From: a virus
Taxonomy: Duplodnaviria > Heunggongvirae > Uroviricota > Caudoviricetes
DNA: 47,118 nucleotides
Virus record (IMG/VR): IMGVR_UViG_2634166512_000003
Reading direction: 5' to 3' (one strand)
The notes below the pieces were generated by a model that saw nothing but the letters and a program-made list of their open reading frames with translations, searched no databases and was not told the DNA's origin. This document shows positions 2,471 through 19,988 of the stretch, piece by piece; the stretch's first letter is position 1, and every line of letters starts with the position of its first letter. A program made the position numbers and the translations under genes.

Positions 2471-2519
2471 TGTGATCCTCCTGTTACTGGTGAATCGCAA
2501 TGCTAGCGATGGTGAGTTT

Positions 2520-2702: not shown

Positions 2703-3271
2703 TAGCGTACCCTCAGCGAACGTTCGCCGCGTTCCAGATGTGCGCCTGGTACCGGGTTTAATAACTCGGCTGGTGGTGTTTCTCCACGCGCCAGTATTTC
2801 GGCGGCAACCGCCTCCGCAGATTCAATCACTTCTTTAATGGCTCGCTTGTTTGGTGTAATAACCGTTTCTACATCAACAAGTGACACGCCTTCATACTCA
2901 TCCGGGATCTTATCTTTGCTATCGATAATTACCCGGATAGCCCCCTGTGCATCAGTAAATGTGTTTTTTGCGGTTTTTAGTTTATCCAGGCCAGCAGCTT
3001 GCAGGCAGGCGAGCATATGCTTCCGAATTGCTTTTTCCTTGCCTTCAAAGGACGTCTTACGGGTAGCCAGGCGAGACATTTCTTCAGCGCAGGTACTGGC
3101 ATTGCCCTGTAAATTGCGGCAGATGACCATCATGGCGTCCAGTTTGTCTCCCAGTTCTCCTTCCATACCTTCAAGTGTGTCGGCGATCATCTCTGGCGTC
3201 AGTTCGTCGGAGGTTTCCAGCAGGTCAATCAGGCTGGCGTATTCTTTTGCAATAGCGATAGCGGTGCTCAT
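2702..3271 (-). CDS. Gp157-family-like phage protein (recombination/early module)
   Basis: 189-aa acidic protein directly downstream of and overlapping the large annealing-domain protein; family assignment from memory and synteny only. Confidence 0.4.
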   Translation of the reverse strand: MSTAIAIAKEYASLIDLLETSDELTPEMIADTLEGMEGELGDKLDAMMVICRNLQGNASTCAEEMSRLATRKTSFEGKEKAIRKHMLACLQAAGLDKLKTAKNTFTDAQGAIRVIIDSKDKIPDEYEGVSLVDVETVITPNKRAIKEVIESAEAVAAEILARGETPPAELLNPVPGAHLERGERSLRVR

Positions 3272-5490
3272 GCTGTTTGCTCCTGTGCGGCGGCGAGAGC
3301 GGCGAGGCGTTCGGTTTTGATTTCATTCAAACGGCGCAGGCGCGAACCAAGATAAGTTGAATACTCCTTATCACCTTTGGATTCTGCGGCTTTGCGGTGA
3401 ACTTCTACTTCCCGCGCAATAAGGCCATAGACTTTATTAACTTCATTGGGGGTTACGGCTGCAGCCAGTGTTTTGGCAACACCTGAGAGTCGTTCATCCA
3501 GTTCTTCACGCAGTCGGGTAGCATCCTCTGCTTTCTCGCTTGCCTTCTTAATACCGTATTCTGTATTCAGCTCGGCGGTGTAGGCACTATCGTTATGCAT
3601 ATCCATATAAACATCTGCCGCAAATCCCAGATGAGATAGTGCTTTGACGGTGGCATCAGTAAGAGACTTTTTGGAGGCCTCTTTTTCCATTACCAGTGCC
3701 CCTTTGTTATTTTTTGATATGTAATCCGTGTGGCCATATGACGGAATAAATCCTTTCACTCCGTTCCAGACGTACCAGAGATCTATCCGGATGGTGTGTA
3801 CTGACAGGCAGAACAGGGAGCCGTCAGCATCCCTGACAGGTTTTTGTCCAATAATTTTCCCTGTCTGATCCTGTATAGGTTCAAGTAATGGCACACCGCG
3901 ATCCACTCGCTCCTCCTTGATTTCAACTCCCCAACCAATGCCTTCCATTCCCAGCACTTCAGTCGCACGCATCAAAATATATTGTGCGCGTATGGAGTGC
4001 AGTCCTGCACCGTAATCATTATGTGTGACATACGCAGGATCGGTCCGCTGAACGCGATTCCAGATAGCCAAATTTGCTTTGCTCTGGTCATCATTCATTG
4101 CTGACAGATAATGCTCCATGCGAATTGATGCAGTTTTTTCCTCGGTATGGATCCGCTCAACCAGAGCGTCAACGTTCTGCACCAGGTCTTTTACCTGCTC
4201 GCTAAGTTTTTCTTGTGGAGGAGTCTCTTCTTCCAGGATAACAGTTACAGATTCCCGCTGTGATACGGCGTTATTTTCTGGTACGCCATACACATGGCGG
4301 GGCGTGACAAACTGCTCACGCAACTGCTGCAAACTACGCTCTCCAGCATTTGCTGCTTCGCTTTTTTCGCCCTGATTTGAGGGGGGTTCTGACATCATCC
4401 CATCGATTGAGAATCGCCCGCCGCCGTGGTTGGTGACTTTTACATCACCCTTTGGTGCTGCGTCCTTTGGCTTCTCTTCAACAGCATTTGCATCACGCTG
4501 CCCGTTAGCTTGCAGCCAGTTGTCGATGTGACTGCGCAGGGATTGCGGGAAATGGTACGTGTCTTTTGCGGGGGCACTCTGAACGACACCGAATACGGAT
4601 GCCCGGTCATAGGAAAGGATCTGATCCGTTGTGCGCAAGGCCATTGACCAGCGTTTAAAATCCTCCCGATCCTGGCTGATTATTTCGTCTGCCGCTTTCA
4701 GGACGCTGGGGGTGATTTTTTCCGGGCCAACGGGTAACAGAGCGCAGGCAATTTCACGATCCAGTGTAGCGTGAGTCTGTTTGTAAGGACGTGCGGATGC
4801 TGTTTCTGGTTTTACCTCCGGCAGCATTTCATCGCGTTTACCGGGATTCTCTACCCATTTTTTTATAAATTTGGAGATAGTCCAACTGGTCGGGTTTTGT
4901 TCCTGGGTATCGCAACTTGCCAAAATTGCATGTACCAGATTATTCAATCCAGCAATATGCATGTACTCGATGGGCTTACACGCCACCATGGCATCAAGAA
5001 CGATGCGGTTAAACGCGTCAACCTCATCCTCACTGTCAGTATCACTGTTGTCGAGCATCTCCAGGTATTCACGCGTCTGCGCAAGCAATTCACTGTTGAC
5101 TTCGTTGGCGTCGTGGCTGAACAGCAGAACGGCGGCGAATCGTTCACGAGCCGGCAGTTTCATCAGGTCGTTAACCTGTGCGATATCTGCTGAACCGCTA
5201 TCTACAACGGGGGTGTTAACTACCCATTTTTCGCCATCAAAACTGTGTTCTGTGGCGAACGTCTCATCAAACTCACCAACGCCTGGGCGCGGTTGGCCCG
5301 GGGCATCTTCCCAGATTTTAGGTTTGAAATAGTTGTCGCCGTGGTCAGGGTAGGCTTCCCACAATTTGCCGATGATGATGTTCTCGGCAACTTTTTTGTT
5401 AGGGGCGTCGATGGCGATGGCCAGCGCCGGGATCGCGCCGTTTTTGAGCGCGCCTTTTTTCGCTTCTAACAAGCCGTTAAAAATGGTCAT
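3268..5490 (-). CDS. large phage recombination protein: C-terminal Rad52/Sak/ERF-like single-strand annealing domain with about 400-aa N-terminal extension of unknown function
   Basis: 740-aa ORF with GAGGAAAGACC RBS; C-terminal half contains KKSLTDATVKALSHLGFAADVY, resembling the K-x-x-TDA-x-K-x-A-...-G-x-G-...-Y signature of Rad52-like annealing proteins; N-terminal half not recognised. Confidence 0.5.
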   Translation of the reverse strand: MTIFNGLLEAKKGALKNGAIPALAIAIDAPNKKVAENIIIGKLWEAYPDHGDNYFKPKIWEDAPGQPRPGVGEFDETFATEHSFDGEKWVVNTPVVDSGSADIAQVNDLMKLPARERFAAVLLFSHDANEVNSELLAQTREYLEMLDNSDTDSEDEVDAFNRIVLDAMVACKPIEYMHIAGLNNLVHAILASCDTQEQNPTSWTISKFIKKWVENPGKRDEMLPEVKPETASARPYKQTHATLDREIACALLPVGPEKITPSVLKAADEIISQDREDFKRWSMALRTTDQILSYDRASVFGVVQSAPAKDTYHFPQSLRSHIDNWLQANGQRDANAVEEKPKDAAPKGDVKVTNHGGGRFSIDGMMSEPPSNQGEKSEAANAGERSLQQLREQFVTPRHVYGVPENNAVSQRESVTVILEEETPPQEKLSEQVKDLVQNVDALVERIHTEEKTASIRMEHYLSAMNDDQSKANLAIWNRVQRTDPAYVTHNDYGAGLHSIRAQYILMRATEVLGMEGIGWGVEIKEERVDRGVPLLEPIQDQTGKIIGQKPVRDADGSLFCLSVHTIRIDLWYVWNGVKGFIPSYGHTDYISKNNKGALVMEKEASKKSLTDATVKALSHLGFAADVYMDMHNDSAYTAELNTEYGIKKASEKAEDATRLREELDERLSGVAKTLAAAVTPNEVNKVYGLIAREVEVHRKAAESKGDKEYSTYLGSRLRRLNEIKTERLAALAAAQEQTA

Positions 5491-5520
5491 TGGTCTTTCC
5501 TCATTACAGGTCAGTGGTTT

Positions 5521-5841
5521 TTAGTAGGGGAGCTCATCGGTATCTGGCGTGTATTCGATGCAAAGTAACTGCTGGATTTTGTCATCGATAGCAGCAATAC
5601 GCTGTTGAGCGTCGGCGGCTGTATTCTGTTTTTGCTCACGCAGCTGCTCGACCTGCAAACCGATGATGTCGATTGGCTGGGGCTGGTTGACGGTAATTTC
5701 AATTTCGCGGCTTTCCAGAAGGATGTACCTGTCTGGAAAATTTTTTGACATATCAACCGTCGCAATAAACAGCTTTTCATGGCTGAAAGTTGAAGTTGCA
5801 TAATGAATAAAGAGTGTTACTGGGATGGTGCGCGCTTCCAT
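5521..5841 (-). CDS. hypothetical phage protein (106 aa)
   Basis: ORF with AAGGAG RBS upstream of ATG at 5841. Confidence 0.45.
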   Translation of the reverse strand: MEARTIPVTLFIHYATSTFSHEKLFIATVDMSKNFPDRYILLESREIEITVNQPQPIDIIGLQVEQLREQKQNTAADAQQRIAAIDDKIQQLLCIEYTPDTDELPY

Positions 5842-6689
5842 AGCGACTCCTTGGTGATGTATACTCGGGACCGATCAGCGAATATTGATCAGCTTCCATA
5901 GCGTCAGTGTCGTTGGTCTTTCCTCATCACAAGTTTGGTCACTTGTGATAAATCCGAATGGTTTGGTCGCCGTTCGGGGTAACTGGCCCGCCTTGTGCGG
6001 GTCTTTTGCTATCTAAAGGGTGCCGGTTACGTTTCCGGCGTCGTTATGTTTCCATCACGACCGTACGGGGCTGGTCTTTCCTGTTTTGAGCTGGTCAGGC
6101 TCATGGTCAACGCTGGTCAGGCGTGGTACTTCCTCCGGTCTTTCCCTGGTGTCACGCTGCGGGTTTGGCCTCTCCTGTTGGGGACTCAGGCACAGCGATA
6201 AAACCTGGCTGTGTGAAAAAATGGCCCATCGTGCGGACTGGGCAAAGACTAAACACAGCAAATTGATGATGGGCGCCCGGAATCGAACCGGGTAACGGGC
6301 AGGGAGTTCCCGTTAAACACCTGTTCACCACAACCGGGAGCGCACTCCGCCATTTCAAAATTTAACGACAAAGCTCAAAGTTGAGTCGATGAAGTGCGCT
6401 CTCGTGTTGTAGCCAGGACTCTTCCCTGGTGGTCACACCGTATCGCCTTGATGGTGAATCAATCGCTCATACCTGGCTGTGGCTTGCACATTCCGGCTAC
6501 CTGCTATGGAGACAACGCGTTAAGGCTCCGCTTCCATCCAGACCGCTTCGACACATGTGCCATATGCCGGCGAAGTCTTTCCCTCTGTCATCGTGTTGGC
6601 GCCGACGCGCAAAATTTGATGCCGTCTTTCCGGCTGTCAGAACGTGTTTCTGAACAACTGCCGCTGGGTAAGCGTTGTTGATGAAAGTG

Positions 6690-6750
6690 ACTTTACAATT
6701 TGTATTTGTAATGGTCAACGTATTTTTAAAAAATAATTTGTAGTTAGGGG
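6690..6750. promoter_or_regulatory. putative leftward operator/promoter region (OL/PL-like) downstream of repressor gene, with ATTTGTA-type repeats
   Basis: acaatttgtatttgtaatgg and aataatttgtagtt share the ATTTGTA(A/T)T motif also found in the repressor/cro intergenic region. Confidence 0.3.
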
Positions 6751-6837
6751 CAAAAAAATATTCACTGTGTAAAGGTGTTTTTGTGTTAGGGGGAAAGTTG
6801 CATGCCAGCAGCGGCTGGCCTGAAAATTTGAACTGAA

Positions 6838-7251
6838 CTATTTTGTCTGGTTTTTGGCTTCAAGTAGTTCTTTTAGCAGTAGATCGAAGTGCTCTCTTTT
6901 TTCTTTTAGCTCATTGATTAATTTATTTTTTTCGCTCTCAGGCAGTCCTCTGAATAGTTGCAGTAGAGCCTGTTCTTGCGGGGTTAGTTCTTGATTGTAA
7001 TTACCCGGGTGTAGCGTGGATTCATCCAAATATTCCCCTTCATTCATGAAGAAAAAATGAACAGGGTATCCGGTCACTTTTGCTAGCTTGTCTAATTTAT
7101 CTTTTCTTGGAGTTACCCCATTACACCATGCCTGAACTGATTGAGCCGTAACCCCAATATGGCGAGCTAACTCAGATTGAGACCAGCCTAAGTCTTTTAG
7201 AATCCGTTGTAGTCGGCTAGCAAAAGCCATGTTTTTCGTTTTTGTGTTCAT
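6838..7251 (-). CDS. prophage repressor, DicA-like (XRE-family HTH N-terminus, no autopeptidase domain)
   Basis: HTH region LKDLGWSQSELARHIGVTAQSVQAWCNG; C-terminal LLQLFRGLPESEKNKL resembles DicA as recalled; divergent from a Cro-like gene; ORF-track start at 7266 is TTG, first ATG at 7251 preferred. Confidence 0.75.
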   Translation of the reverse strand: MNTKTKNMAFASRLQRILKDLGWSQSELARHIGVTAQSVQAWCNGVTPRKDKLDKLAKVTGYPVHFFFMNEGEYLDESTLHPGNYNQELTPQEQALLQLFRGLPESEKNKLINELKEKREHFDLLLKELLEAKNQTK

Positions 7252-7266
7252 ACCGTAAGGATACAA

Positions 7267-7349
7267 GGTTTAATTGTAGGGAGCATTGCAAATATAATTT
7301 GTAATTACAGTTATGATTTGTAATGATGGCGCGGACACAAGGAGTCCAT
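7267..7349. promoter_or_regulatory. divergent operator/promoter region between repressor and cro-like genes
   Basis: Contains perfect 10-bp palindrome TGTAATTACA, two ATTTGTAAT direct repeats, a TATAAT hexamer and TTGCAA; AAGGAG RBS before cro-like ATG at 7350. Confidence 0.45.
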
Positions 7350-7580
7350 ATGGATAAACAACTGCAAGACAAAATTCTTTCCGTAATGAGTCAATCCGAG
7401 TTAGGGCGGCGATTAGGGAAAAAACCACAAACGGTAAGCCTCTGGTTCAAAGGAAGGGTTCCCGGTGAAGAGGTTTTGCGCACATCTGAAGCTCTTGAAT
7501 GGCGCGTGACCCCCCATGATCTTAGACCGGATCTTTACCCAAACCCAGATGACAGCTTGCCTAAAACGAAAGCAGCTTAA
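7350..7580 (+). CDS. Cro-like / YdaS-family HTH regulator
   Basis: Small protein with HTH (LGKKPQTVSLWFKG) divergent from repressor; start at ATG 7350 with AAGGAG RBS rather than ORF-track 7323. Confidence 0.65.
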   Translation: MDKQLQDKILSVMSQSELGRRLGKKPQTVSLWFKGRVPGEEVLRTSEALEWRVTPHDLRPDLYPNPDDSLPKTKAA

Positions 7581-7638
7581 CTGTTGGTGAGCCCCAAATC
7601 TGATTAAGCGTAATCAATTTTTAGCGACAGGAGACGCT

Positions 7639-8115
7639 ATGGAAAACCAAGAGGAATTACAAAAAGAGATTTTGACCTGGGCGGCAAGGGCAGGGCAGGA
7701 ACTCGTCACGATTGAAATCTGCCGGGCCTGGTTCAGTCAGGGACGCAATGATGAGTTGAGACTACATGAATTTGAGGACGCGGACGGCAATGTGGACTGG
7801 AGAGCCATCAACAACAATCGGCAGAAAATCTTTCGCTGGTTACGTGGCGAGACAACGGCGGCGCGCCGAAAAACTCAGGTGCTGGCCAGTGTGATGAAAG
7901 CCGTGCTACCCGCAGAACGGCGGGCACGTCTGGAGTCGCTGGGCGATCCCGTTTTGCTGGCAACGCTGGCGGCAAAAGAAGGGGTGGAAGCGATTAACGC
8001 TGTACATCTCCACTTCGCGCCAGAGTTAACTATCCAGGAAATTGACGAAGCAATAGCGGCGCTGGTAGCGACGCGAGGAGCAGTGATACGCACTGCGCAA
8101 GACCACCATGCATGA
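7639..8115 (+). CDS. YdaT-like early regulatory protein (CII-position gene)
   Basis: 158-aa ORF immediately after cro-like gene, as in ydaS-ydaT pairs of Rac-type prophages; assignment by synteny and recalled similarity. Confidence 0.45.
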   Translation: MENQEELQKEILTWAARAGQELVTIEICRAWFSQGRNDELRLHEFEDADGNVDWRAINNNRQKIFRWLRGETTAARRKTQVLASVMKAVLPAERRARLESLGDPVLLATLAAKEGVEAINAVHLHFAPELTIQEIDEAIAALVATRGAVIRTAQDHHA

Positions 8116-8154
8116 GCGCCTGACCAGCGTTTAACTTATACCGAGGAAAGACCG

Positions 8155-8379
8155 ATGTTAAGACATATTGACCGCATTACCTGGCGTAACGGCTGGCACC
8201 TGAATGGGCGCCCGGCACATGTTGCAGAGATCCAACCTATTTTTGATGGGCGTATGGCTGCCGCGCTTTCGGTGTGGGAGCAGTATGAATCCAGGAAGGT
8301 CGAGTTGCGCGACAAAGGGCTGAGCAATGCGGACTATGAAGCCGGTTGTCGTCAGATAGCCGAAGCTCTGGAGATCTGA
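8155..8379 (+). CDS. hypothetical phage protein (74 aa)
   Basis: ATG preceded by GAGGAAAGACC motif; stop 2 nt before next start. Confidence 0.45.
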   Translation: MLRHIDRITWRNGWHLNGRPAHVAEIQPIFDGRMAAALSVWEQYESRKVELRDKGLSNADYEAGCRQIAEALEI

Positions 8380-8381
8380 GT

Positions 8382-9446
8382 ATGAGTCGTTTGCTGATTA
8401 ACGAAAACCCCCTTCAGGTCCTGCCCACGTTGGCATGCACTATAGGGTTGAATGAAGCCATCGTTCTACAGCAAATCCACTACTGGCTGAATTCATCTCA
8501 AAATTTCTTCGAAAATCGCCACTGGGTGTACAACAGTGTGACCGATTGGCAAGAACAATTCCCGTTCTGGAGCGAGTCGACAATAAAACGCGTGCTGGCC
8601 AATCTGGAAAAATTGAATGTGGTATTTACTGGGAACTTTAACAGTGATGCCTGGGATAAAACCAAGTGGTATTCAATCAATTATGCCCAGTTATGTAAGA
8701 TTGAAGAGACAACATTCCCTGTGGCCAATCGATTAGGTCAAGTTGACCCAATCGAAGAGGTCAATGTGACCCAAGCATCAGGTCAAGTTGACCCATGCGC
8801 TAAGGTCAAAATGACCCAATCTCTTACAGAGAATACAACAGAGAGTACTACAGAGATAAAAGATCCCCCTTACCCCCAAAAGGGGGAGGGCGAGGAAATC
8901 ATTCTCGCTGACGCTCAAAAAGCTCTGAACTACTACAACGAGAAAGTCGGTACACGCTGCCGCGATGTTAAACCGTTTGTCATGCTGCTGACTGCCACCA
9001 CCACCCGCGCTGGTTACAGCGTGGCTGAGATTCAGTTAGTAATTCGTTGGGTTATTGCGACATGGCGCCGTCGTAGCGGAAGCGTGCCGAAACCTGCGAA
9101 CATTTGCCGCGTAAACCGGTTTGACGGATATCTGGCTGACGCTGAGGCGTGGGCCACTGCTGAGGCTGCCGTTGACCCTGCTGAAGTTGTGAAGAGCTAC
9201 AACGAGATTCTGGGCGACCTGCTACCTATAGCTGAAATTGATACTGACCGCCGTCGGGCAATCCTGCGCCTGCTGGCACATATGCGCACGCAAACTCTTG
9301 GCGCATTTATCGGCTACTTCGAAAAATTCCGCGATAACGCCCCAGACTTCTATTTCGGCGGCGAATATCGCACCGGCTGGCGGGCAGGGTTTGATTACCT
9401 GATGAAGCCAGAAACACTGCGTAAAACCAGGGAAGGGGCATTATGA
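8382..9446 (+). CDS. phage replication initiation protein (O-like / replisome organiser)
   Basis: ATG at 8382 with GGAG RBS (ORF-track start 8346 is TTG); position between early regulators and helicase; acidic linker and conserved C-terminal region typical of phage replication initiators. Confidence 0.6.
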   Translation: MSRLLINENPLQVLPTLACTIGLNEAIVLQQIHYWLNSSQNFFENRHWVYNSVTDWQEQFPFWSESTIKRVLANLEKLNVVFTGNFNSDAWDKTKWYSINYAQLCKIEETTFPVANRLGQVDPIEEVNVTQASGQVDPCAKVKMTQSLTENTTESTTEIKDPPYPQKGEGEEIILADAQKALNYYNEKVGTRCRDVKPFVMLLTATTTRAGYSVAEIQLVIRWVIATWRRRSGSVPKPANICRVNRFDGYLADAEAWATAEAAVDPAEVVKSYNEILGDLLPIAEIDTDRRRAILRLLAHMRTQTLGAFIGYFEKFRDNAPDFYFGGEYRTGWRAGFDYLMKPETLRKTREGAL

Positions 9447-9645
9447 ATCCAGAAGAACTGGAAGCGATCGTTCTCGCTGGTCTGATTAACGGTGGCGCGA
9501 CGCCTGACGCGTTTGATGTGATTGCCACTACTCCGGAGGAAGCCTTCAGCATCGTGTTTCGTAAGCGTAAACTGACCGCCGTATGTAGCCATCAGACGAG
9601 AATTGGTAACTTAGACGCCCATCTGATATAGACGGACATCTAAGT

Positions 9646-10071
9646 ATGGAATTACAGGACTGGCGAAAAGAACCTCGTAAAAACTATTCGAATGAATTCA
9701 AACTTCGTATGGTGGAACTGGCATCACAACCTGGAGCTTGTGTTGCACAGATTGCACGTGAAAATGGCGTCAATGATAATGTTATTTTCAAATGGCTCAG
9801 GCTCTGGCAGAACGAAGGGCGTGTTTCGCGGCGTCTTCCGGTAACGACCTCTTCTGACACTGGCGTTGAATTATTACCTGTAGAAATAACGCCGGATGAG
9901 CAGAAAGAACCTGTGGCGGCCATTGCGCCGTCTTTATCCACTTCCACTCAGACCAGAGTCAGTGCCAGTTCCTGCAAGGTGGAATTCCGTCACGGTAACA
10001 TGACGCTGGAAAATCCATCGCCAGAGCTGCTCACAGTGTTGATCCGTGAACTGACCGGGAGGGGAAGATGA
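9646..10071 (+). CDS. IS66 family accessory protein Orf1 (TnpA-like)
   Basis: 141-aa HTH-containing protein, first of the IS66 three-gene set. Confidence 0.8.
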   Translation: MELQDWRKEPRKNYSNEFKLRMVELASQPGACVAQIARENGVNDNVIFKWLRLWQNEGRVSRRLPVTTSSDTGVELLPVEITPDEQKEPVAAIAPSLSTSTQTRVSASSCKVEFRHGNMTLENPSPELLTVLIRELTGRGR

Positions 10072-10418
10072 TCTCACTCCCATCAGGTACCCGTATCTGG
10101 CTCGTTGCCGGCGTTACCGATATGCGTAAATCCTTCAACGGACTGGGAGAACAGGTACAACATGTGCTGAATGATAATCCCTTCTCCGGTCACCTGTTTA
10201 TCTTCCGTGGCCGACGGGGTGACACCGTCAAAATTCTTTGGGCTGATGCTGATGGTCTGTGCCTGTTCACCAAACGCCTGGAGGAAGGCCAGTTTATCTG
10301 GCCTGCGGTACGTGACGGCAAGGTATCCATTACCCGCTCGCAACTGGCAATGCTCCTCGATAAGCTGGACTGGCGTCAGCCAAAAACATCCAGCCGTAAC
10401 TCACTGACAATGTTGTAA
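10068..10418 (+). CDS. IS66 family accessory protein Orf2 (TnpB-like)
   Basis: 116-aa protein overlapping Orf1 stop (ATGA), characteristic IS66 arrangement. Confidence 0.8.
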   Translation: MISLPSGTRIWLVAGVTDMRKSFNGLGEQVQHVLNDNPFSGHLFIFRGRRGDTVKILWADADGLCLFTKRLEEGQFIWPAVRDGKVSITRSQLAMLLDKLDWRQPKTSSRNSLTML

Positions 10419-10448
10419 AAAACTCCTGACCGCATTATAAAAACGGTC

Positions 10449-12062
10449 ATGAGTCAGAAATACCTCATTCGCATCGCAGAGCTGGAAAGGTTGCTCTCTG
10501 AGCAGGCTGAAGCCCTCCGTCAGAAAGACCAGCAACTGAGTCTGGTTGAAGAGACGGAAGCCTTCCTGCGCTCTGCACTGACACGTGCCGAAGAAAAGAT
10601 CGAAGAAGATGAACGGGAAATAGAACATCTGCGGGCTCAGATAGAAAAACTGCGCCGGATGCTGTTCGGTACCCGTTCTGAAAAACTGCGTCGTGAAGTT
10701 GAACTGGCTGAGGCTCTGCTGAAACAACGTGAACAGGACAGCGATCGTTACAGTGGGCGGGAAGACGATCCTCAGGTTCCCCGCCAGTTGCGACAGTCGC
10801 GCCATCGTCGTCCGTTACCGGCACACCTTCCCCGTGAAATACACCGCCTGGAGCCAGAAGAAAGCTGTTGCCCGGAGTGTGGCGGTGAGCTGGATTATCT
10901 GGGGGAAGTCAGCGCTGAACAGCTGGAACTGGTGAGCAGTGCCCTGAAAGTGATCCGCACAGAACGGGTAAAAAAAGCCTGTACAAAATGTGACTGTATT
11001 GTTGAAGCACCGGCGCCGTCCCGCCCGATAGAGCGTGGTATCGCGGGCCCCGGATTACTTGCCCGCGTGTTAACGGGAAAATACTGCGAACATCTGCCAC
11101 TGTATCGTCAGAGTGAAATCTTTGCCCGCCAGGGTGTCGAACTGACCTGGGCCTTACTCTCCAACTGGGTTGACGCGTGCTGCCAGTTAATGACACCGGT
11201 GAATGATGCCCTGTACCGTTATGTAATGAACACCCGCAAGGTTCACACTGATGACACACCGGTAAAGGTACTGGCACCGGGTCAGAAAAAGGCGAAAACA
11301 GGGCGTATCTGGACGTATGTCCGGGATGATCGCAATGTGGGTTCGTCATCTCCTCCAGCGGTCTGGTTCGCGTACTCGCCGAACCGGCAGGGGAAACACC
11401 CGGAGCAACACCTCCGCCCCTTCCGGGGTATCCTGCAGGCGGATGCGTTCACAGGTTACGACAGGTTGTTCAGTGCAGAACGTGAAGGTGGTACACTGAC
11501 AGAAGTTGCGTGCTGGGCCCATGCCCGGCGAAAAATCCACGATGTATACATCAGCAGCAAAAGTGCGACGGCAGAAGAAGCCCTGAAGCGAATCAGTGAA
11601 CTGTACGCCATCGAGGATGAAATACGGGGATTACCGGAGTCAGAGCGTCTTGCCGTCAGGCAGCAGCGAAGCAAAGTGTTACTGACGTCGCTGCATGAAT
11701 GGATGGTGGAGAAGAATGGTACGCTGTCGAAAAAATCCAGACTGGGCGAAGCGTTCAGCTATGTACTGAATCAGTGGGATGCCCTCTGTTATTACAGTGA
11801 TGACGGTCTGGCGGAGGCGGATAATAATGCTGCGGAAAGAGCGCTTCGTGCAGTCTGTCTCGGAAAGAAAAACTTTATGTTCTTTGGCAGCGATCACGGC
11901 GGCGAGCGTGGAGCACTGTTGTACGGGCTGATCGGCACCTGCCGTCTGAACGGTATCGATCCGGAAGCGTATCTGCGCCATATCCTGAGCGTACTGCCGG
12001 AATGGCCTTCCAACCGAGTTGACGAACTCCTGCCATGGAACGTAGTACTCACCAATAAATAA
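10449..12062 (+). CDS. IS66 family transposase
   Basis: 537-aa protein with N-terminal coiled-coil/leucine zipper, CxxC zinc motif and DDE-type core as recalled for IS66 transposases. Confidence 0.85.
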   Translation: MSQKYLIRIAELERLLSEQAEALRQKDQQLSLVEETEAFLRSALTRAEEKIEEDEREIEHLRAQIEKLRRMLFGTRSEKLRREVELAEALLKQREQDSDRYSGREDDPQVPRQLRQSRHRRPLPAHLPREIHRLEPEESCCPECGGELDYLGEVSAEQLELVSSALKVIRTERVKKACTKCDCIVEAPAPSRPIERGIAGPGLLARVLTGKYCEHLPLYRQSEIFARQGVELTWALLSNWVDACCQLMTPVNDALYRYVMNTRKVHTDDTPVKVLAPGQKKAKTGRIWTYVRDDRNVGSSSPPAVWFAYSPNRQGKHPEQHLRPFRGILQADAFTGYDRLFSAEREGGTLTEVACWAHARRKIHDVYISSKSATAEEALKRISELYAIEDEIRGLPESERLAVRQQRSKVLLTSLHEWMVEKNGTLSKKSRLGEAFSYVLNQWDALCYYSDDGLAEADNNAAERALRAVCLGKKNFMFFGSDHGGERGALLYGLIGTCRLNGIDPEAYLRHILSVLPEWPSNRVDELLPWNVVLTNK

Positions 12063-13412
12063 GCGTCAATACGGTGCTCCGTTGACGCTTACCGTGTTTC
12101 ACCGTCGCGCTTTCAGCGAAATCAAAAAGCAGGCACTGGCGAACGGCATGATCGACATGTTGTTTATCAGCGAAGCGCTGGGCGGTTCCAGCCTTGCGGA
12201 TCTGTCTCAAATATCCCGGATCCCGGCAACGGCACCGAATCTGAAAGGCTATGCCGGGAAAATGGTGCGGGCATGGCGGAGCCGCAAAATGGCGGCATTG
12301 TTGCAATCTGGCGCGGATGGTATCCGTAACGCTGTAAACCAGAGTCAGCGTGATGAGGTTATTGAATCTCATGTTGCTCAGGTGCTGGATATGAGCGCCG
12401 CTACCGGCACAGTCCAGCCGGTACACATCAAAGAGCTGTTACCGCTCTACATTGACACCGTTGATAAACGGATGTCTGGTGACGCGCAGGAAATGATGCT
12501 GAAAACCGGAGTCGAGGATCTGGATGTCGCCCTGGGCGGTATCAACATGACCGATCTTGTTGTGGTTGCCGGTCGTCCAGGCATGGGGAAAACGGAATTT
12601 ACCCTGAAGATTATCGATGGCGTTACCGCAGATGGCGGCGGCGCACTGTTTTTCAGCATGGAAATGGGCGCTCAGCAGATTGTTGAACGTACCGTTGCCG
12701 GGGCTGGGAATATGTCAACGTCGCGTCTGCGTAATCCAAAAGAAATGGACGATGAGGATTTGACCAGATTAACCGCCGCGCTTGCAATCATGCAGGATCG
12801 CGATATCTGGATTGTTGATGCCACTGATTTGACGATTGAGCAGATCCGCGCCATTGCAGAGACTCATAAACGCCGTTATCCGCACCTGAAGTTGATTGGT
12901 GTTGATTACATGGGCCTGATCAAAAAACCGAAGGCCGAGCGCCACGATCTCGCTGTCGGGCATATCTCCCGCAACATGAAGACTATGGCCATGCGTCTGC
13001 ATACCCCTGTTTTTGCTCTTAGCCAGCTTTCCCGCCAGGTGGATTCTCGACCTGCTGGCCAGCGTCGCCCGGTGATGTCGGACCTGCGCGATTCCGGCAG
13101 TGTTGAGCAGGACGCTGACAGCATTTTGTTTTTGTACCGCGATGAAGTTTACACACCTGATTCACCTGCAAAGGGTATCGCCGAGGTGATTATCGGTAAA
13201 AACCGTTCTGGCGGGGCAGGTGAAATTATTTATCAGGAATTCCGGAATGGGCATTTCCTGCCAATTGATCAACACGTAGCACGCGAAAAAATACGCATCC
13301 AGAAGGAGGCAGAGCAACCGAGAAAACGTGAAAAACGGTATTCAAACAAAAACTTTAATACGGACCCATTTTAACCACGCATGACCAGCGTGAAATAACC
13401 GAGGAAAGACCA

Positions 13413-13814
13413 ATGACCCAATTAATTAACCACACGAGTGCACACTATAGTGACGACGGTAAAAACTACCTGGATTCAATTCTGTGGCACATGAACGCAG
13501 CCGCGCGAGCACGTACCCGCTCGACATATTGCCCGCCACCTAAAAACACTGACGTTGTGGTAATTGCAAAACCTGAGCACGTAGCAGTTATTCGCCCGGC
13601 AGAAATAACCTCAGGGACCGCCAAAACACATACCGGCGTTGTTATTAAAAATACTGGCGAGCGCACAGTAAAACTCCGCGAAACAGCGACTGCGTGGTCT
13701 GCGGGTGTAAGGGAGAACTACGATAAAAAAACAGGTTACCGCTTAGGCGCATCAGGCAGCACCCGGTTGTTACTCGACACCGTGAAGCCCATCAGGAAGA
13801 AGGGCAAAAAATAA
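13413..13814 (+). CDS. hypothetical phage protein (nin-like region)
   Basis: ATG preceded by GAGGAAAGACC motif. Confidence 0.45.
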   Translation: MTQLINHTSAHYSDDGKNYLDSILWHMNAAARARTRSTYCPPPKNTDVVVIAKPEHVAVIRPAEITSGTAKTHTGVVIKNTGERTVKLRETATAWSAGVRENYDKKTGYRLGASGSTRLLLDTVKPIRKKGKK

Positions 13815-14047
13815 TGACTGGCGCAGATTATCTCCCGGCTGGGTTGCCACACAACAGGGCAGCATGGCCGCAGGAGTATCAAATACTGGAACATTACGAT
13901 TTGCGCGCCGCCGGGCTGATTCGCCAGTTATACGAAAAACGAATACCACGCGGCACGGTTACAGAGGCGTTGAAAAATACTCCTGATAATTACCGGGAGT
14001 TTTTCAGGGACCGACTGAATTACTGGAGAGGGGAACGAGAAAAATGA
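13814..14047 (+). CDS. hypothetical phage protein
   Basis: Overlapping start/stop with neighbours, consistent with an operon. Confidence 0.4.
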   Translation: MTGADYLPAGLPHNRAAWPQEYQILEHYDLRAAGLIRQLYEKRIPRGTVTEALKNTPDNYREFFRDRLNYWRGEREK

Positions 14048-14268
14048 ACGAAATTTTACTCGCATTTATTCCACGATTTATTAACGACAAAGTGGCGTTG
14101 AGTGCCGTTAATGATCAATACGAAATTGTATGCAGCATGATCGACATTATCCCCGGTGAGCAGTATGACGCGATGTGTGACCTGAAAATATTCACGTGGT
14201 TGGGGTGGGCCATTCCGTGTGGAGAGCCAACAAATATTCGCCCGTTTGAGGGCAGGGAGGCTGTATGA
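14044..14268 (+). CDS. hypothetical phage protein
   Basis: Overlapping start/stop with neighbours. Confidence 0.4.
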   Translation: MNEILLAFIPRFINDKVALSAVNDQYEIVCSMIDIIPGEQYDAMCDLKIFTWLGWAIPCGEPTNIRPFEGREAV

Positions 14269-14455
14269 GTGAGTTGAAAATACGTCGCAAGACAATAGCA
14301 CGCGTTAAAAATCCATTACCGGCCCCCGCCGAATGCCATTTTTGTGGTGGGAATGTACGGATTGGTACGTATGTATGGTGATTGCGAAGTGACGTAAAAC
14401 AAATCGTTGTGGGTGTAATATCGTCAATATCATTGGTTTCCTGGAGGGAAAGGAT

Positions 14456-14677
14456 ATGTTTGGCGATAACCTGGAGTTACCACGGAACGGGCGGATAGTG
14501 CTCTATATTTCAGATTACAAAGTAACCCGGGCTGAGGTGTTGGAACCGGAAAAACATTTGGTCACGTTACCGGACATTATTGAGTTGTATAAGCGGGTCG
14601 GATATGTGGACTTGCATCGCGATGATGTTCCCGTTGAGTGTATGGAATGTGAACACCGGAGGTTTGAAGTTGATTGA
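14456..14677 (+). CDS. hypothetical phage protein
   Basis: ORF with GGAGGG RBS. Confidence 0.4.
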   Translation: MFGDNLELPRNGRIVLYISDYKVTRAEVLEPEKHLVTLPDIIELYKRVGYVDLHRDDVPVECMECEHRRFEVD

Positions 14678-14769
14678 ATTGACTTAGAAAAAGCCCGGGG
14701 CTATAGTTTCCGCGCAGCCGCAAAATCGGTTGCCGGGATTTGCACCCCGGATATCTAAAAGGCGACAAC

Positions 14770-14790
14770 GACGCGCCAGCGTCTTTTTTA
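14770..14790 (+). terminator. rho-independent terminator-like hairpin (possibly bidirectional)
   Basis: GACGC-GCCA-GCGTC stem-loop followed by TTTTTT; A-rich tract upstream; embedded in longer inverted repeat CGACAA...TTGTCG. Confidence 0.5.
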
Positions 14791-14949
14791 TTGTCGTGCG
14801 CACAGCCACATCCGCGATTTATGGTGGGGCGTGTAGGGGAGTCGAAAGGCTCGCCGGGTCCTTTTAGCCGGTAGTGCAAACCCTGCATGTCTCACCACCC
14901 AAAGATTTGCACCTGAGGGGGGTGATTATCCGACTAAAAGGAAATCGCT

Positions 14950-15744
14950 ATGACAACTCAAGTATCCGCAGCAGCCATCTCCCCGATTATCCACAACCAA
15001 CTTCCCGTCCTCACCACCGAATTACTCGCGAATCTCTATGGCACAGAGCCGGATTACATTCGTAAAAACCATAACCGGAACTCAGAGCGATTCGTGGTCG
15101 GGAAGCATTACTTTTTGCTCGAAGGTGAGGAGTTGCGCGAATTTAAGCACAGCATGTCTTTAAGACCTCCTGTGAAAATCGCCAGAAATGTCCGCTCTCT
15201 CATCCTCTGGACAGAACGCGGCGCAGCTCGCCATGCCAAAATGCTGGAAACAGAACAGGCCTGGGAAGTTTTCGAAAAGCTGGAAGATTGTTATTTTAGC
15301 CAGCGTCCAGAGAGGCGGAGTACAACCACCGATGACCGCACTCCCTTACGTGATGCCGTTAATATGCTGGTCGGTAAGAAAGGCATGATGTATCCCGATG
15401 CCTACACCATGATTCACCAACGTTTCGCCGTCTCTCACATAGAACAACTGTCACAGACGCAAATGTTAGAGGCGATTGAATACATCCACTGCCTGCTACT
15501 CGATGAAAATCAGCCAACCATTCCAGATTTTTCTTTTATCACCACTATCAAAAATGGAAAAGTGACCAGGATGCGCCATGTTGCCAAAGGCGAACATCTG
15601 ATGACGTTTGACGCTTTCAAAGAGATCGCTGAGCGGGCAGGGTATCTGGTGATCCACAGCGACAACCTGCGAAGTATGACGCTGGATAAATTGATGGTAA
15701 TGGGGAAAAAGTCGGTTGTATCCGTTGCTGATTCAGCATTTTGA
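14950..15744 (+). CDS. antirepressor / Roi-like protein with N-terminal KilA-N/ORF6N-type domain
   Basis: N-terminal region (LPVLTTELLANLYGTEPDYIRKNHNRNSERFVVGKHYFL) resembles ORF6N/KilA-N antirepressor domains as recalled. Confidence 0.55.
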   Translation: MTTQVSAAAISPIIHNQLPVLTTELLANLYGTEPDYIRKNHNRNSERFVVGKHYFLLEGEELREFKHSMSLRPPVKIARNVRSLILWTERGAARHAKMLETEQAWEVFEKLEDCYFSQRPERRSTTTDDRTPLRDAVNMLVGKKGMMYPDAYTMIHQRFAVSHIEQLSQTQMLEAIEYIHCLLLDENQPTIPDFSFITTIKNGKVTRMRHVAKGEHLMTFDAFKEIAERAGYLVIHSDNLRSMTLDKLMVMGKKSVVSVADSAF

Positions 15745-15782
15745 CAGGTTGAATGTTTGGCGCGGTTATACTCTATTTGCGC

Positions 15783-15852
15783 TTAAAAAGGTATTTAGTC
15801 ACAACCAGCACGAGGCCGAATACTCTGTCAAAGTACCGCCCATGTAAAACTG
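15783..15852. repeat. copy A of about 70-bp imperfect direct repeat (non-coding relic of a gene 3' end)
   Basis: Near-identical to 19384..19454 with a few mismatches and one indel. Confidence 0.8.
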
Positions 15853-15921
15853 TTACGTATGTACTTGATGACTAAGCTGGCACCAGGTTAACACCAGGCG
15901 CCAGCTTGAAGGAAACTTCAG

Positions 15922-16845
15922 TTATTGGTTTCTGAGGAAAGCGATTCTTGAAAGGGTCATTTGCGTCTGGCAGTCGACCATTTTCTTGACTTCAGCATCT
16001 GTTCCCTGCATTGAAACTTTACCGCACATAGCATCCTTAGTTTTGATCCACTGACGCTGAGAAGGCAGCAACTCTTTTTTCTTCGCCGGCGTTAACCTGC
16101 CCCAGACTGTATTCAAATCAGAGTCAGCATTCGCAAATGCCATTCGGGACTGATCAAGGCTTTCAGCTTTTTGCGGCTGAAGTTGTGCCTGCCTCTCTAT
16201 TTGCTTCTCCGCCTCATACCTGGCCTGTTCCTGTGCCCTGAGTTGCACCTGTTGTTCCGCTTCAATTTGACTCTGTTGGGCATCCTTAGCCTGCTGGATT
16301 TTCTGCTGCTCAACGATCGGGTTGATAATGGAAAGCGATGTCAGTAAAGCGGCGCCCACTGATATCGGATTATCAGAAGAGGTTTTTACAAAAACGTTTT
16401 TCTGATCGTCGGTCGCCTGCACGGTGTAGGTGATACGTTTTGAAAAGGCGTTTGCGTTGTTCTCCAAAAACAGATTTTCCATTTGCTTATCGAGATTACG
16501 ATTAAAATTCTTTCGGTAAGCATCAGAAAGCTGGATGTACTCGTTCGCAGGTAGAGTCATCGTCACGGTCCCTTCACAAGTTTTCATTGTGCTGCCCGTG
16601 TCACTTGATGTTGTGGAGATTTCAGAGACGGCTAGTTTGATCTTGTCCAGTGTGCTTCGTTTGGTCTGATTAGTGACATCAGGGTATTTATCGACCTGTT
16701 CAGAGAGTCCTTCATAAGCAGATTTTTTTAATAAATCCATGAGAGCTGATTGGGTCATTTCCGAAGAACAACCGATCTCATCTTTTTTGTTATCACAGCC
16801 TGTAAGGGCAATGGCGAGTAAGAGTACTGAGTATTTTAATCTCAT
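15922..16845 (-). CDS. lipoprotein with Gln-rich coiled-coil region and C-terminal DUF1311/LprI-like domain
   Basis: Signal peptide with lipobox LTGC; C-terminal QRQWIKTKDAMC...CQTQM motif resembling DUF1311 as recalled; minus-strand orientation opposite to flanking phage genes. Confidence 0.55.
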   Translation of the reverse strand: MRLKYSVLLLAIALTGCDNKKDEIGCSSEMTQSALMDLLKKSAYEGLSEQVDKYPDVTNQTKRSTLDKIKLAVSEISTTSSDTGSTMKTCEGTVTMTLPANEYIQLSDAYRKNFNRNLDKQMENLFLENNANAFSKRITYTVQATDDQKNVFVKTSSDNPISVGAALLTSLSIINPIVEQQKIQQAKDAQQSQIEAEQQVQLRAQEQARYEAEKQIERQAQLQPQKAESLDQSRMAFANADSDLNTVWGRLTPAKKKELLPSQRQWIKTKDAMCGKVSMQGTDAEVKKMVDCQTQMTLSRIAFLRNQ

Positions 16846-17471
16846 GAATTCCCTTTAGAGTAAGGATTGGTTTTTAAGACGCGGTCTGTAATCAGTTCCG
16901 AGAGCTACAGTAAACAACGCTGAGCACTGAACGCATCACAGGCAAGGTAAAAGGTGATATCGGCAAAGGCTGTGAAACCTTTAATTCAACAGATGGGAAC
17001 GGTATGCACAGGATCCTGTAACGACGCTCCCAAAACCGGAAACCTGTAAGGCATGTTTTCGCTGCTGAACTTAATATACGAACCTGCACTATCATGAACA
17101 TATTTTATATCGTTATACCCCGAGTGATTGTGCCCGGCAATGGATAGTGTCCTGGAGGAACTATTTCTACTGTAAAAGGTAGACATTTAATTTCAGTGTG
17201 GAATTATTCCCTGCTGTTAATAACCATGGCTCTATATGGCACCGAGCGGACTAGTTAACTTGCCTGAAAGCCGCTATGAGTGAGGAGCGAATATTGGCAC
17301 GATAGGATACCTGAACCATTTTTTGGACATGCGCTAAAAGCGAATGATTAGTTTTATCGGAATATTTACAGTATACTTACAAGGCAAGCTTGGCGTACCG
17401 TCTTGGGCGAGATTGCTTAAATTATTTTGTGGATATATCATTCAAACAAAAGATAATAAAATGAGGTTGTT

Positions 17472-17669
17472 ATGTCATATATTCGCGTAGAGAAAGATGG
17501 CCTTCAGTATGAAGCAGAATACTTCCGTGAAGAGGATATGGTCACAGTCTTTGGGGTTAGAGGAGGGCATTCCAGCGTGGTTCTAAATGGAATGACAGAA
17601 GTCGCGGCTGCTCGTACTGCGTTACGAAATCTTATTAGAGAAAATCAGGTTGATCCTCTAACTGATTAA
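17472..17669 (+). CDS. hypothetical small protein (65 aa)
   Basis: ORF in AT-rich island upstream of the T5orf172-like gene. Confidence 0.35.
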   Translation: MSYIRVEKDGLQYEAEYFREEDMVTVFGVRGGHSSVVLNGMTEVAAARTALRNLIRENQVDPLTD

Positions 17670-17873
17670 AAATAAGCCATCTTAACTGAGAGCATATTTT
17701 GATATAATTTAGATTAAATCTATTTTGAAGGTTAGTTTGGGATGAGAAGATTACATCAAAACCGTTATTACTAGCAATAAGTTGTGTAAATCAAATAATA
17801 CATAATCAGGTGGTAATATATACTAAGCGTAGTAAAGTTTTTATATATTCCTGTAACTTTGTGAGAAACTTCC

Positions 17874-18539
17874 ATGAAAGCCGACAACTTAAGAATTATA
17901 GAGAATGGCAAATATGTTTTCGATATGTTCTTGGATACTGGTGAATTTTACTATACAAGTCATGCCTTTGACACGAGAGAAGATGCAAAAAGCTGGATGG
18001 AAGAATGGCAGATTTGGGCAAATAATGTATCGAGTGGGAAAGTAAGTAGTATTTATTATATTTTACAAGTGCCTGATACTTGGGCCGGTTCTTCAGATAA
18101 AAATAACCCTTACTCGGGACTTTATGTGAAAATAGGGCGTTCCAATAATGTGCTAAAAAGGTTGTCTAACCTGCAGACAGGTGCATTTGGTCAATTAATA
18201 TTACACGCTTTGGAACCAGGTGGTTCAGAAAAAGAAAACTATCTTCATGAAAAATTTAGCAACGAAAGACGTCAAGGTGAATGGTTTGTTTGTACTAAGG
18301 AACTTACCAAGCATATATTTACAACATGGTTTAAAAACAAAATGCTCCCACCAGAACATCAAATAAAAATAATGCAGCTCGCAGAAAGAACAGGTATTTA
18401 TTCGCATGTTCATACACTAATGGGGGGGAAGCCAGACTTAGTAAACCCATCTATTAGTGAACCTTGGGAATGCGAAAAATATGTTTTGGTTGATATGATT
18501 TATAGCTCTTTAGCAAAGCAAGTTAATCATAAAAAATAA
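17874..18539 (+). CDS. T5orf172/MUG113-type (GIY-YIG superfamily) domain protein with uncharacterised N-terminal domain
   Basis: Motif GLYVKIGRSNNVLKRLSNLQTG...LHEKFSNERRQGEWF matches the recalled T5orf172 consensus (YVKIG...R...L..TG...LH..F...R..GEWF); AT-rich codon usage. Confidence 0.7.
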   Translation: MKADNLRIIENGKYVFDMFLDTGEFYYTSHAFDTREDAKSWMEEWQIWANNVSSGKVSSIYYILQVPDTWAGSSDKNNPYSGLYVKIGRSNNVLKRLSNLQTGAFGQLILHALEPGGSEKENYLHEKFSNERRQGEWFVCTKELTKHIFTTWFKNKMLPPEHQIKIMQLAERTGIYSHVHTLMGGKPDLVNPSISEPWECEKYVLVDMIYSSLAKQVNHKK

Positions 18540-18664
18540 AGTGTTACATTTTAACTATACAATTATTGATTCACTAATGAAGAGGTGATTTAGACGTATG
18601 AAGTTTTAATAAGCTCCAAGAATATTTTGTCATACATGGGTTAAAGAGTTATATAATAATATCT

Positions 18665-18722
18665 GCTTCTGGAACACAGCAGACAAGCACCTGCAGATAA
18701 AGGTCTGCTGAGAGCGAGAAGC
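18665..18722 (+). other. nested inverted-repeat element (possible structured RNA) in intergenic gap
   Basis: GCTTCT...AGAAGC outer stem enclosing CAGCAGAC...GTCTGCTG inner 8-bp stem with 18-nt loop. Confidence 0.3.
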
Positions 18723-18859
18723 GGATCATACGTTGGAAGTTGTTTAGGCAAATACGTTATAAACGTATTTGATTAAATTTACTTGGATCATAGTCTTCAA
18801 TAACGCTTTATTATATTGTTTTTCATGCAGCAAACAGGTTCACAGGTAGGTAATAAGCT

Positions 18860-19264: not shown

Positions 19265-19373
19265 CACTCGAACACACTCAGTAATCGTCTATAAGGCCAG
19301 CACTTGTTACTTGGTCATTTGGGGTTGCTGGTCTTCTCCATTAAATCGACTAAAGTCTGTTCCATAGAGAGAG

Positions 19374-19979: not shown

Positions 19980-19988
19980 TCTAAAGCG

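Follow-up and report, generated by a model that had tools for sequence, protein, structure and literature searches.

Our analysis indicates that a prophage in Escherichia coli has very likely lost its own replication helicase to an insertion sequence. The window, by which we mean the whole 47,118-nucleotide stretch of DNA that was analysed, holds an ISEc23 element in codon 39/40 of a gp12-type helicase gene, leaving no full-length helicase; amplification of the prophage DNA is probably lost as a result. By homology, the interrupted gene is a DnaB-like replicative helicase of the P22 gp12 type. The element is ISEc23 by sequence identity, a name that rests on PGAP labelling. The coordinates of all features are collected in Table 1.

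Table 1. Features of the interrupted replication module and of the inserted element (window coordinates)
Feature	Position	Strand	Basis
Replication initiator, lambda O / P22 gp18 type, 354 aa, intact	8382..9446	+	C-terminal similarity to P22 gp18
Four origin-like iterons AGGTCAAnnTGACCCA, 22-23 bp apart	8735..8818		Repeat search
Helicase 5' fragment, codons 1-39 and first base of codon 40	9443..9560	+	RM10042 comparison, junction sequence
62-aa fusion ORF, 39 helicase residues and 23 from the IS left end	9443..9631	+	ORF list
Target-site duplication, left copy CGTGTTTC	9553..9560		Single copy in RM10042
Complete ISEc23 (IS66 family), 2,532 bp	9561..12092	+, same orientation as helicase gene	99.9% identity to annotated copies
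Left terminal inverted repeat GTAAGCGTAAACTGACCGCCGTAT	9561..9584		20/24 bases vs reverse complement of right end
tnpA, IS66 accessory protein, 141 aa	9646..10071	+	Pfam HTH_Tnp_1; NCBIfam IS66 TnpA; identical to WP_000422741.1
tnpB, IS66 Orf2-like accessory protein, 116 aa	10068..10418	+	Pfam TnpB_IS66 1e-36; NCBIfam IS66_TnpB
tnpC, IS66 DDE transposase, 537 aa	10449..12062	+	Pfam LZ_Tnp_IS66, zf-IS66, DDE_Tnp_IS66, DDE_Tnp_IS66_C
Right terminal inverted repeat, holds the TTG at 12082	12069..12092		Match to left end
430-aa ORF from TTG in the IS right end	12082..13374	+	ORF list
Target-site duplication, right copy CGTGTTTC	12093..12100		Sequence match to left copy; RM10042 comparison
Helicase 3' fragment, codons 40-463 and stop	12100..13374	+	Pfam DnaB_C 1.7e-69

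Boundaries of the insertion and the empty site

The element is directly abutted on both sides by CGTGTTTC, a perfect 8-bp target-site duplication; two given 8-mers are identical by chance with a probability of 4^-8, about 1.5e-5. An initial sequence-only reading had described an IS66-family element with an intact 8-bp duplication inside the prophage helicase gene, and all of its coordinates hold. It had also claimed that removal of 9561..12092 together with one copy of CGTGTTTC restores a continuous DnaB-like frame. Joining 9443..9560 to 12101..13374 does give a single 1,392-nt ORF, which encodes 463 residues without an internal stop.

An uninterrupted version of the same prophage is carried by E. 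coli O43 RM10042. Positions 1..9560 of the window align without gaps to 11041..20600 of RM10042 L001, and positions 12093..32700 align, again ungapped, to 20593..41200. The two blocks overlap by exactly 8 bp (20593-20600), which are present once in RM10042. This empty site and the perfect duplication bear out the precise delimitation of the insertion. The contiguous site is annotated as 'replicative DNA helicase' in 35 complete E. coli genomes.

The ISEc23 element

The element is identical at 2,529-2,530 of its 2,532 nucleotides to copies labelled 'IS66-like element ISEc23 family' (RefSeq/PGAP), so that comparison with named copies puts a name to what had been assigned to the IS66 family from sequence alone. 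Pfam and NCBIfam models match all three ORFs, which are full length. The tnpA and tnpB genes overlap by ATGA, and both lie upstream of tnpC. The tnpB product scores 120.9 bits with NCBIfam IS66_TnpB (cutoff 50). For tnpC, Pfam DDE_Tnp_IS66 is matched at 4e-96 over model positions 1-283 of 284, and NCBIfam transpos_IS66 at 1.6e-133 (445 bits, cutoff 180). The terminal inverted repeats are imperfect, matching at 20 of the first 24 bases, and both ends begin with GTAAGCGT, i.e. GTAAGCG, a start that is reportedly typical of IS66-family ends. The first 10 terminal bases are identical in the 7 other ISEc23 copies sampled, and each of these 7 is flanked by a perfect 8-bp duplication, the duplicated sequences being unrelated. 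PMC6778807 cites Machida et al. (1984) for a duplication of this length in IS66.

TnpC differs from the common ISEc23 allele by S233T, R234W and A349T. S233T is shared with a minor allele of the WP_264723505.1 type. R234W has no match in the ISEc23 copies of the complete E. coli genomes searched, and A349T was not found in such copies among the matches listed, a list that lacks one record at most. An ISEc23 query matches a median of 3 places per E. coli genome, a number that includes related IS66-family elements. A target preference for TTTC was considered, as TTTC ends both the duplication described here and that of the first copy compared; it was dropped because no shared pattern emerged from five further copies of the seven. 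In the literature that we found, ISEc23 appears in mere listings of the element.

The interrupted helicase gene

The repaired 463-aa protein differs from the RM10042 'replicative DNA helicase' at 1 residue. It is matched by Pfam DnaB (PF00772) at residues 4-91 (30.6 bits, cutoff 23) and by Pfam DnaB_C at 2e-69; the DnaB N-terminal domain is seen only after repair, not in the split gene. Alignment with P22 gp12 extends over residues 4-454 with 46% identity (E 2e-137) and has no gap at 39/40, and the E. coli and Vibrio DnaB structures are matched with E about 1e-58. NCBIfam TIGR00665 and phage_DnaB both give full-length matches that fall below their strict equivalog cutoffs. The target had been read as the replicative helicase of the prophage, and these comparisons agree with that reading: the reconstructed protein aligns with intact homologues continuously, and nearly over its full length, across the junction.

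The split falls at residue 39/40, within the DnaB N-terminal domain. The remainder of this domain is encoded by the 3' fragment, as are the linker and the complete RecA-like ATPase domain (Walker A GRPGMGKT). The 62-aa fusion ORF has been called as a gene in the draft assembly GCA_002173365.1.

Initiator, origin and prophage context

The initiator gene immediately upstream has a stop codon that overlaps the helicase start (ATGA). The C-terminal 92 residues of its product are 38% identical to the P22 gp18 C-terminus, and relatives in RefSeq are annotated as 'replication protein RepO' or 'hypothetical protein'. The four iterons follow the pattern of lambdoid origins, in which an O/gp18-type gene contains an array of roughly four such repeats that have internal dyad symmetry. 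Their layout matches that of the origin that lambda and P22 have within O and gene 18 (rep_origin annotation of P22), and the array, lying within the initiator gene upstream of the insertion, is undamaged. No P-like loader is annotated in the replication module.

The prophage is lambdoid and is located at tRNA-Ser(CGA) beside mtfA. Its head is lambda-like and its contractile tail P2-like. Its moron-like genes include one for a CapP-like ImmA/IrrE peptidase. A PADLOC search for defence systems returned this peptidase and a weak ORF6N match, with no complete known system, and accessory defence content was set aside on this result as a reason for retention of the prophage.

Age and distribution of the insertion

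The flanks are 99.97-99.98% identical to RM10042 on each side, with 7 substitutions in about 30 kb. All 38 RM10042 coding sequences mapped via L001 (mtfA and 37 prophage genes) are free of internal stops in the window, the sizes of the morphogenesis ORFs match, and the only indels are one of 1 nt between genes and one of 6 nt that keeps the frame. Since the other annotated prophage genes and the iterons are intact, the comparison with RM10042 yields no disruptive difference other than the IS, which is consistent with a young event.

A query spanning the junction retrieved no record with at least 80% coverage among 5,426 complete E. coli genomes, the matches being to the IS half only. The 39-mer at the left junction had no exact match among one genome per GTDB species, as expected because E. 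coli is represented there by a single genome. Several public draft assemblies, GCA_002173365.1 and GCA_005043055.1 among them, independently have the two junctions at 100% identity, on contigs that end within the IS. Because the same junctions recur in these assemblies and two of the tnpC substitutions are unmatched, the insertion is, as far as these comparisons reach, a marker of a lineage and not a one-off of a single culture.

The insertion had been called probably recent, and the perfect duplication, the near-identical flanks, the lack of any other broken prophage gene and the absence of the junction from all 5,426 complete genomes support this view. We consider it unlikely that the lesion is instead an old one that became fixed in a domesticated prophage whose accessory genes account for its retention. 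The occurrence of the junctions in more than one public assembly would fit an old lesion, as would the moron-like genes such as that for the CapP-like peptidase and TnpC R234W and A349T, which have no counterpart, among the matches listed, in the ISEc23 copies of complete E. coli genomes. However, an old lesion is hard to reconcile with a duplication that is still perfect, with so few substitutions relative to the intact prophage, with the integrity of every other prophage gene and with a junction that is missing from the complete genomes. The insertion is thus probably recent.

Probable consequences for prophage replication

In P22-type modules the initiator is paired with a gp12-type helicase of its own and is not known to use a lambda-P-type loader for host DnaB. 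In the mechanism we propose, ISEc23 would have transposed into helicase codon 39/40, making the 8-bp duplication usual for this element, and the insertion would leave a fusion peptide of 62 aa and a 3' fragment that has no promoter. The initiator would load its cognate helicase at the iteron origin. This helicase would not be made full length, because the insertion splits its N-terminal domain between the fusion peptide and the promoterless fragment. The arrangement points strongly to a loss of prophage replication. After induction, excision and gene expression would probably still be possible and DNA amplification would not, so the phage yield should collapse. Rescue could occur if, in rare cases, the element were excised precisely between the 8-bp repeats, or through trans-complementation.

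Asadulghani et al. (2009, PMC2669165) showed that many O157 Sakai prophages remain capable of induction, replication and packaging despite IS insertions and other defects, several of these prophages being helped by co-resident ones. The Sakai prophages count against a loss of replication.

Even with its helicase broken, the prophage might replicate through host DnaB or through the helicase of a co-resident prophage. In favour of this, the initiator and the origin are intact, and in O157 Sakai co-residents complement defective prophages in several functions (PMC2669165). However, an initiator of the P22 type uses its own helicase, and the module has no annotated P-like loader. A matching helper prophage is itself unlikely, because close relatives of the helicase are found in only 38 of the 5,426 complete E. 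coli genomes. Taken together, we regard replication by a borrowed helicase as quite unlikely. It is very unlikely that the insertion reflects adaptive domestication, in which the IS-locked prophage would be kept because it no longer replicates and kills efficiently yet still provides immunity and accessory or defence genes, or the helicase fragment would be expressed and poison the replication of related incoming phages.

A further question is whether the surviving part of the helicase could serve. The sequence-only reading had proposed an in-frame start at 12082 from which an N-terminally truncated helicase could be expressed. The in-frame ORF is real, and draft assemblies annotate 12082..13374 as a gene; its product begins with MTLT, encoded by the IS, and VF, encoded by the duplication, and continues with helicase residues 40-463. 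The start, on the other hand, is a mechanical one only: the codon is TTG, a poor one, the Shine-Dalgarno pairing is weak (-3.0 kcal/mol, vs -7.8 for the native helicase ATG), and the product is without the first 39 residues, Pfam no longer seeing the N-terminal domain in the fragment. Some truncated helicase protein may be made from the surviving ORF, and a product from TTG 12082 would have a broken N-terminal domain. In DnaB-family helicases, stable hexamers, contact with primase and helicase activity all depend on the N-terminal collar.

Expression of such a fragment from 12082 or a later in-frame start could draw on pR or on read-through from tnpC. Reinitiation is conceivable because the in-frame ORF begins 20 nt past the tnpC stop. 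The IS is co-oriented with the operon, and within it the search for intrinsic terminators gave none that is convincing (a single weak site, with 2.7 expected by chance); a promoter and terminator scan of 9200-12400 gave no more sites than shuffled sequence and so carries no weight either way as to an outward promoter or polarity. The truncated protein would also keep the whole ATPase domain. Weighed against the poor start and the damaged N-terminal domain, it is highly improbable that the insertion is not inactivating and that this protein supports replication. There is virtually no chance that an assembly error placed a multi-copy IS in the helicase gene: ISEc23 is indeed multi-copy in many E. 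coli genomes and short-read assemblies break in it, but a misassembly would not give a perfect duplication of an 8-bp sequence that the empty site has only once, and independent draft contigs run across the left and across the right junction with 100% identity.

Discussion

The element resembles ISEc23 in its length of 2,532 bp, its sampled termini, its tnpA-tnpB-tnpC layout, its 8-bp duplication and its TnpA and TnpB, which are identical. It differs in the three tnpC substitutions from the common allele and in an insertion site that is absent from complete E. coli genomes. The replication module is built like that of P22 genes 18 and 12, with an initiator that contains internal iterons followed by an overlapping gene for a DnaB-type helicase. 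In contrast to P22, the N-terminal part of the initiator is unrelated in sequence to that of gp18, the virion genes combine a lambda head with a P2-type contractile tail, and the helicase gene is interrupted. The lambdoid prophages of O157 Sakai (PMC2669165) likewise have an IS in a lytic-cycle gene; most of them carry multiple lesions, whereas a single lesion was detected here relative to the intact relative.

An IS insertion that splits a prophage helicase gene is an ordinary, well-understood and already known kind of event, and our analysis adds nothing new on IS66 elements, DnaB helicases or prophage decay. Its value is practical. The prophage can be annotated as having one precisely defined, potentially reversible lesion in its replication helicase, and the junction, found in none of the 5,426 complete E. 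coli genomes and in a few draft assemblies, is a convenient lineage marker. Predictions of inducibility and phage release for the strain should be lowered.

Results

The 8-mer CGTGTTTC occurs at 9553-9560 and again at 12093-12100, directly bordering a 2,532-bp segment (9561..12092) on both sides. In the E. coli O43 strain RM10042 (NZ_CP028122.1), which carries the same prophage uninterrupted, window 1..9560 corresponds to 11041..20600 and window 12093..32700 to 20593..41200 of one stretch (L001). Both alignments are ungapped, with identities of 99.97% and 99.98%. The two blocks share exactly 8 bp, CGTGTTTC, present there in one copy. This overlap directly proves a simple insertion with target duplication, and the sequence-only reading of a precisely delimited insertion with an intact 8-bp duplication was correct. 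Of the 5,426 complete E. coli genomes, 35 hold a 1,200-bp query with 9561..12100 deleted as a single unbroken alignment, with identities of up to 99.9%. The genes under these matches are annotated as 'replicative DNA helicase' and 'replication protein RepO' or 'hypothetical protein'.

The left junction is absent from the 5,426 complete E. coli genomes searched and from the GTDB species representatives. A 62-aa fusion ORF, composed of 39 helicase residues and 23 residues translated from the IS, is recorded for 2 contigs, and the 430-aa ORF (12082-13374) for 4. Contig NEKR01000013.1 (GCA_002173365.1) equals window 5443..10976 at 100% and stops inside tnpC; contig RRJU01000018.1 (GCA_005043055.1) equals window 12014..16374 at 100% and begins 79 nt inside the IS. 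Since both junctions are found in public draft contigs, they are real and mark a small lineage; their recurrence at 100% identity rules out a one-off misassembly.

The segment carries all the defining features of the IS66 family that can be read from sequence. Its terminal inverted repeats are imperfect (20 of the 24 first bases match) and both ends begin with GTAAGCGT. As proposed earlier, it is an IS66-family element, its three ORFs being IS66 TnpA, TnpB and DDE transposase by Pfam and NCBIfam. The tnpC product matches LZ_Tnp_IS66, zf-IS66, DDE_Tnp_IS66 (4e-96) and DDE_Tnp_IS66_C in Pfam, and scores 445 bits against NCBIfam transpos_IS66 (cutoff 180).

Near-identity to annotated copies names the element as ISEc23. 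In complete E. coli genomes, 3,331 records align to at least 80% of the segment; the top hits, at 99.9% identity, carry the RefSeq label 'IS66-like element ISEc23 family transposase' alongside tnpA and tnpB. In a sample of seven full-length copies, compared at their first and last 10 bases, all seven have the termini GTAAGCGTAA...TGACGCTTAC, and each lies between perfect 8-bp duplications whose sequences are unrelated (GCTCTTTC, GCTGATAT, AAGCATCT, AGTTTTTG, CATTAAGC, TTAACAAG and CAGATTCC). Both the borders of the segment and its 8-bp duplication are thus exactly what ISEc23 normally gives. For IS66 itself the reported duplication is likewise 8 bp (Machida et al. 1984, as cited in PMC6778807).

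Three substitutions, each non-synonymous and each in tnpC, set this copy apart from the common ISEc23 allele. Among 4,970 matching places in complete E. coli genomes, the 61-nt stretch around 11146-11148 has no exact match, the best having one mismatch. The stretch around 11493 has at most one record at an identity of at least 99% (5,642 places), absent among the matches listed.

Joining 9443..9560 to 12101..13374 yields a 463-aa protein without internal stop, which differs from WP_028985348.1 of RM10042 in one residue (A84V). It contains Pfam DnaB_C (2e-69), and solved DnaB helicases from Vibrio, E. coli and others match it at E ~1e-58. The DnaB N-terminal domain (residues 4-91; 30.6 bits, cutoff 23) is found in the repaired protein only and is undetected in the 430-aa fragment. 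Phage P22 gp12 aligns with residues 4-454 at 46% identity (E 2e-137), ungapped at the junction (EAFSIVFHRRAF versus EAFSIPLYRKAF), so the predicted restoration of a continuous DnaB-like frame holds. Judged by these alignments, the target is a P22-gp12-type helicase, interrupted at residue 39/40, inside its N-terminal domain. Within the phage collection, the nearest helicase shows 75.6% amino acid identity over its full length (OM816834.1, Stenotrophomonas phage vB_SmeS_BUCT708). Stenotrophomonas is an unexpected host for a near relative of an E. coli prophage helicase gene.

The C-terminal 92 residues of the initiator, encoded just upstream, are 38% identical to the P22 gp18 C-terminus. Four iterons AGGTCAAnnTGACCCA with 22-23-bp spacing lie inside the initiator gene at 8735-8818, which is likely the prophage replication origin, untouched by the insertion. 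An A-rich repeat block (8826-8860) comes after the iterons. P22 annotation also places the origin inside the initiator gene, the same lambdoid arrangement. The likeness to gp12 and gp18 and this origin position assign the module to the P22 gene 18 / gene 12 type.

Features of the window
Feature	Position	Strand	Description
mtfA	window start (inside the gene)		
tRNA-Ser(CGA)	892-981		prophage integration site, beside mtfA
Initiator gene	8382-9446		overlaps helicase start
tnpA	9646-10071	+	IS66 TnpA, 141 aa; Pfam HTH_Tnp_1; NCBIfam IS66 TnpA
tnpB	10068-10418	+	IS66 TnpB, 116 aa; PF05717, 1e-36; ATGA overlap with tnpA
tnpC	10449-12062	+	IS66 DDE transposase, 537 aa; Pfam and NCBIfam
tnpC substitution	11146		G>C, S233T; also in minor allele (ISEc23 copies L004, L005)
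tnpC substitution	11148		C>T, R234W; transition
tnpC substitution	11493		G>A, A349T; transition
ORF6N-domain protein	14950-15744		weak PADLOC PDC-S05 match
307-aa protein	15922-16845	opposite	C-terminal LprI domain
GIY-YIG/T5orf172 nuclease-like protein	17874-18539		accessory block 14950-18539
ImmA/IrrE M78 peptidase	19989-20477	-	PADLOC CapP model, 2.4e-25
Virion module	27399-47118		mosaic: lambda-type head, P2-type contractile tail

After tRNA-Ser(CGA), the gene order is integrase, early genes, replication module, accessory block, Q, lysis, lambda-type head (terminase, gpW, portal, S49 protease, decoration protein, major capsid, FI) and P2-type contractile tail (sheath, tube, baseplate V/W/J/I, X, D). 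In RM10042 a second copy of the 77-bp att core (921-997) lies past the tail genes, ~350 bp beyond the window end; the window therefore spans the prophage from attL to within ~350 bp of attR. Its last base, 47118, closes the stop codon of the tail-fibre N-terminal-domain gene (46108-47118).

Compared with RM10042, 7 substitutions are found over ~30 kb (L001) and 5 more over 14.5 kb (a second stretch, L002). The indels in the prophage flanks are one of 1 nt, intergenic, and one in-frame 6-nt tail-fibre insertion. The latter (AGCAGC, 46512-46517) looks like short-repeat length variation. Through L001, 38 CDSs annotated in RM10042 (mtfA and 37 prophage genes) were mapped; in all of them the start and stop codons are intact and the reading frame is free of internal stops, and the morphogenesis ORFs have the same size as in RM10042. 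No disruptive difference from RM10042 besides the IS was found. On the prophage side, the insertion looks young and without secondary decay, in agreement with the earlier suggestion that it is probably recent.

A 201-aa ORF after the peptidase gene (19374-19979, minus strand) has no Pfam or PADLOC match; with the peptidase it possibly forms a regulator/effector pair (19374-20477), located in the accessory part that separates the replication genes from Q. A 740-aa ORF of the early left operon (3268-5490, minus strand) has no match in Pfam-A and PADLOC scans; the precomputed annotation of an identical gene in a draft assembly gives PF27430 (YdfE_N). The ~1 kb at 5841-6838, between the 106-aa first leftward ORF and the repressor-like HTH gene, is gene-free in the RM10042 annotation.

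Discussion

Both the observation and the interpretation in the sequence-only reading are supported, the weak point being only the truncated-helicase idea. The in-frame ORF from 12082 exists. Its start is a TTG in the right inverted repeat, 20 nt past the tnpC stop, with a predicted anti-SD pairing of -3.0 kcal/mol versus -7.8 at the native ATG (9443), and its product would lack the first 39 residues of the ~90-residue N-terminal head domain. A DnaB-type protein without that part of the domain would probably not function as a helicase. The IS has the orientation of the operon, and consensus scans found no excess of promoter- or terminator-like sites over shuffled sequence.

P22-type modules rely on their own DnaB-like helicase. 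With no full-length helicase makeable here, induction would proceed without amplification of the prophage DNA; steps that could still take place are excision, early transcription and, possibly, expression of late genes. Given the interrupted helicase, the prophage should be replication-defective. Two points temper this prediction. The gene would be restored if the element were excised precisely between the 8-bp repeats, and prophages of O157 Sakai with IS insertions and other defects were shown to be capable of induction, amplification and packaging when co-resident prophages help (PMC2669165).

The finding is correct, ordinary and already known in kind. Inactivation of prophages by IS insertion into genes of the lytic cycle is textbook knowledge. 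The use of the finding lies in annotation and in the prediction that this prophage is replication-defective.
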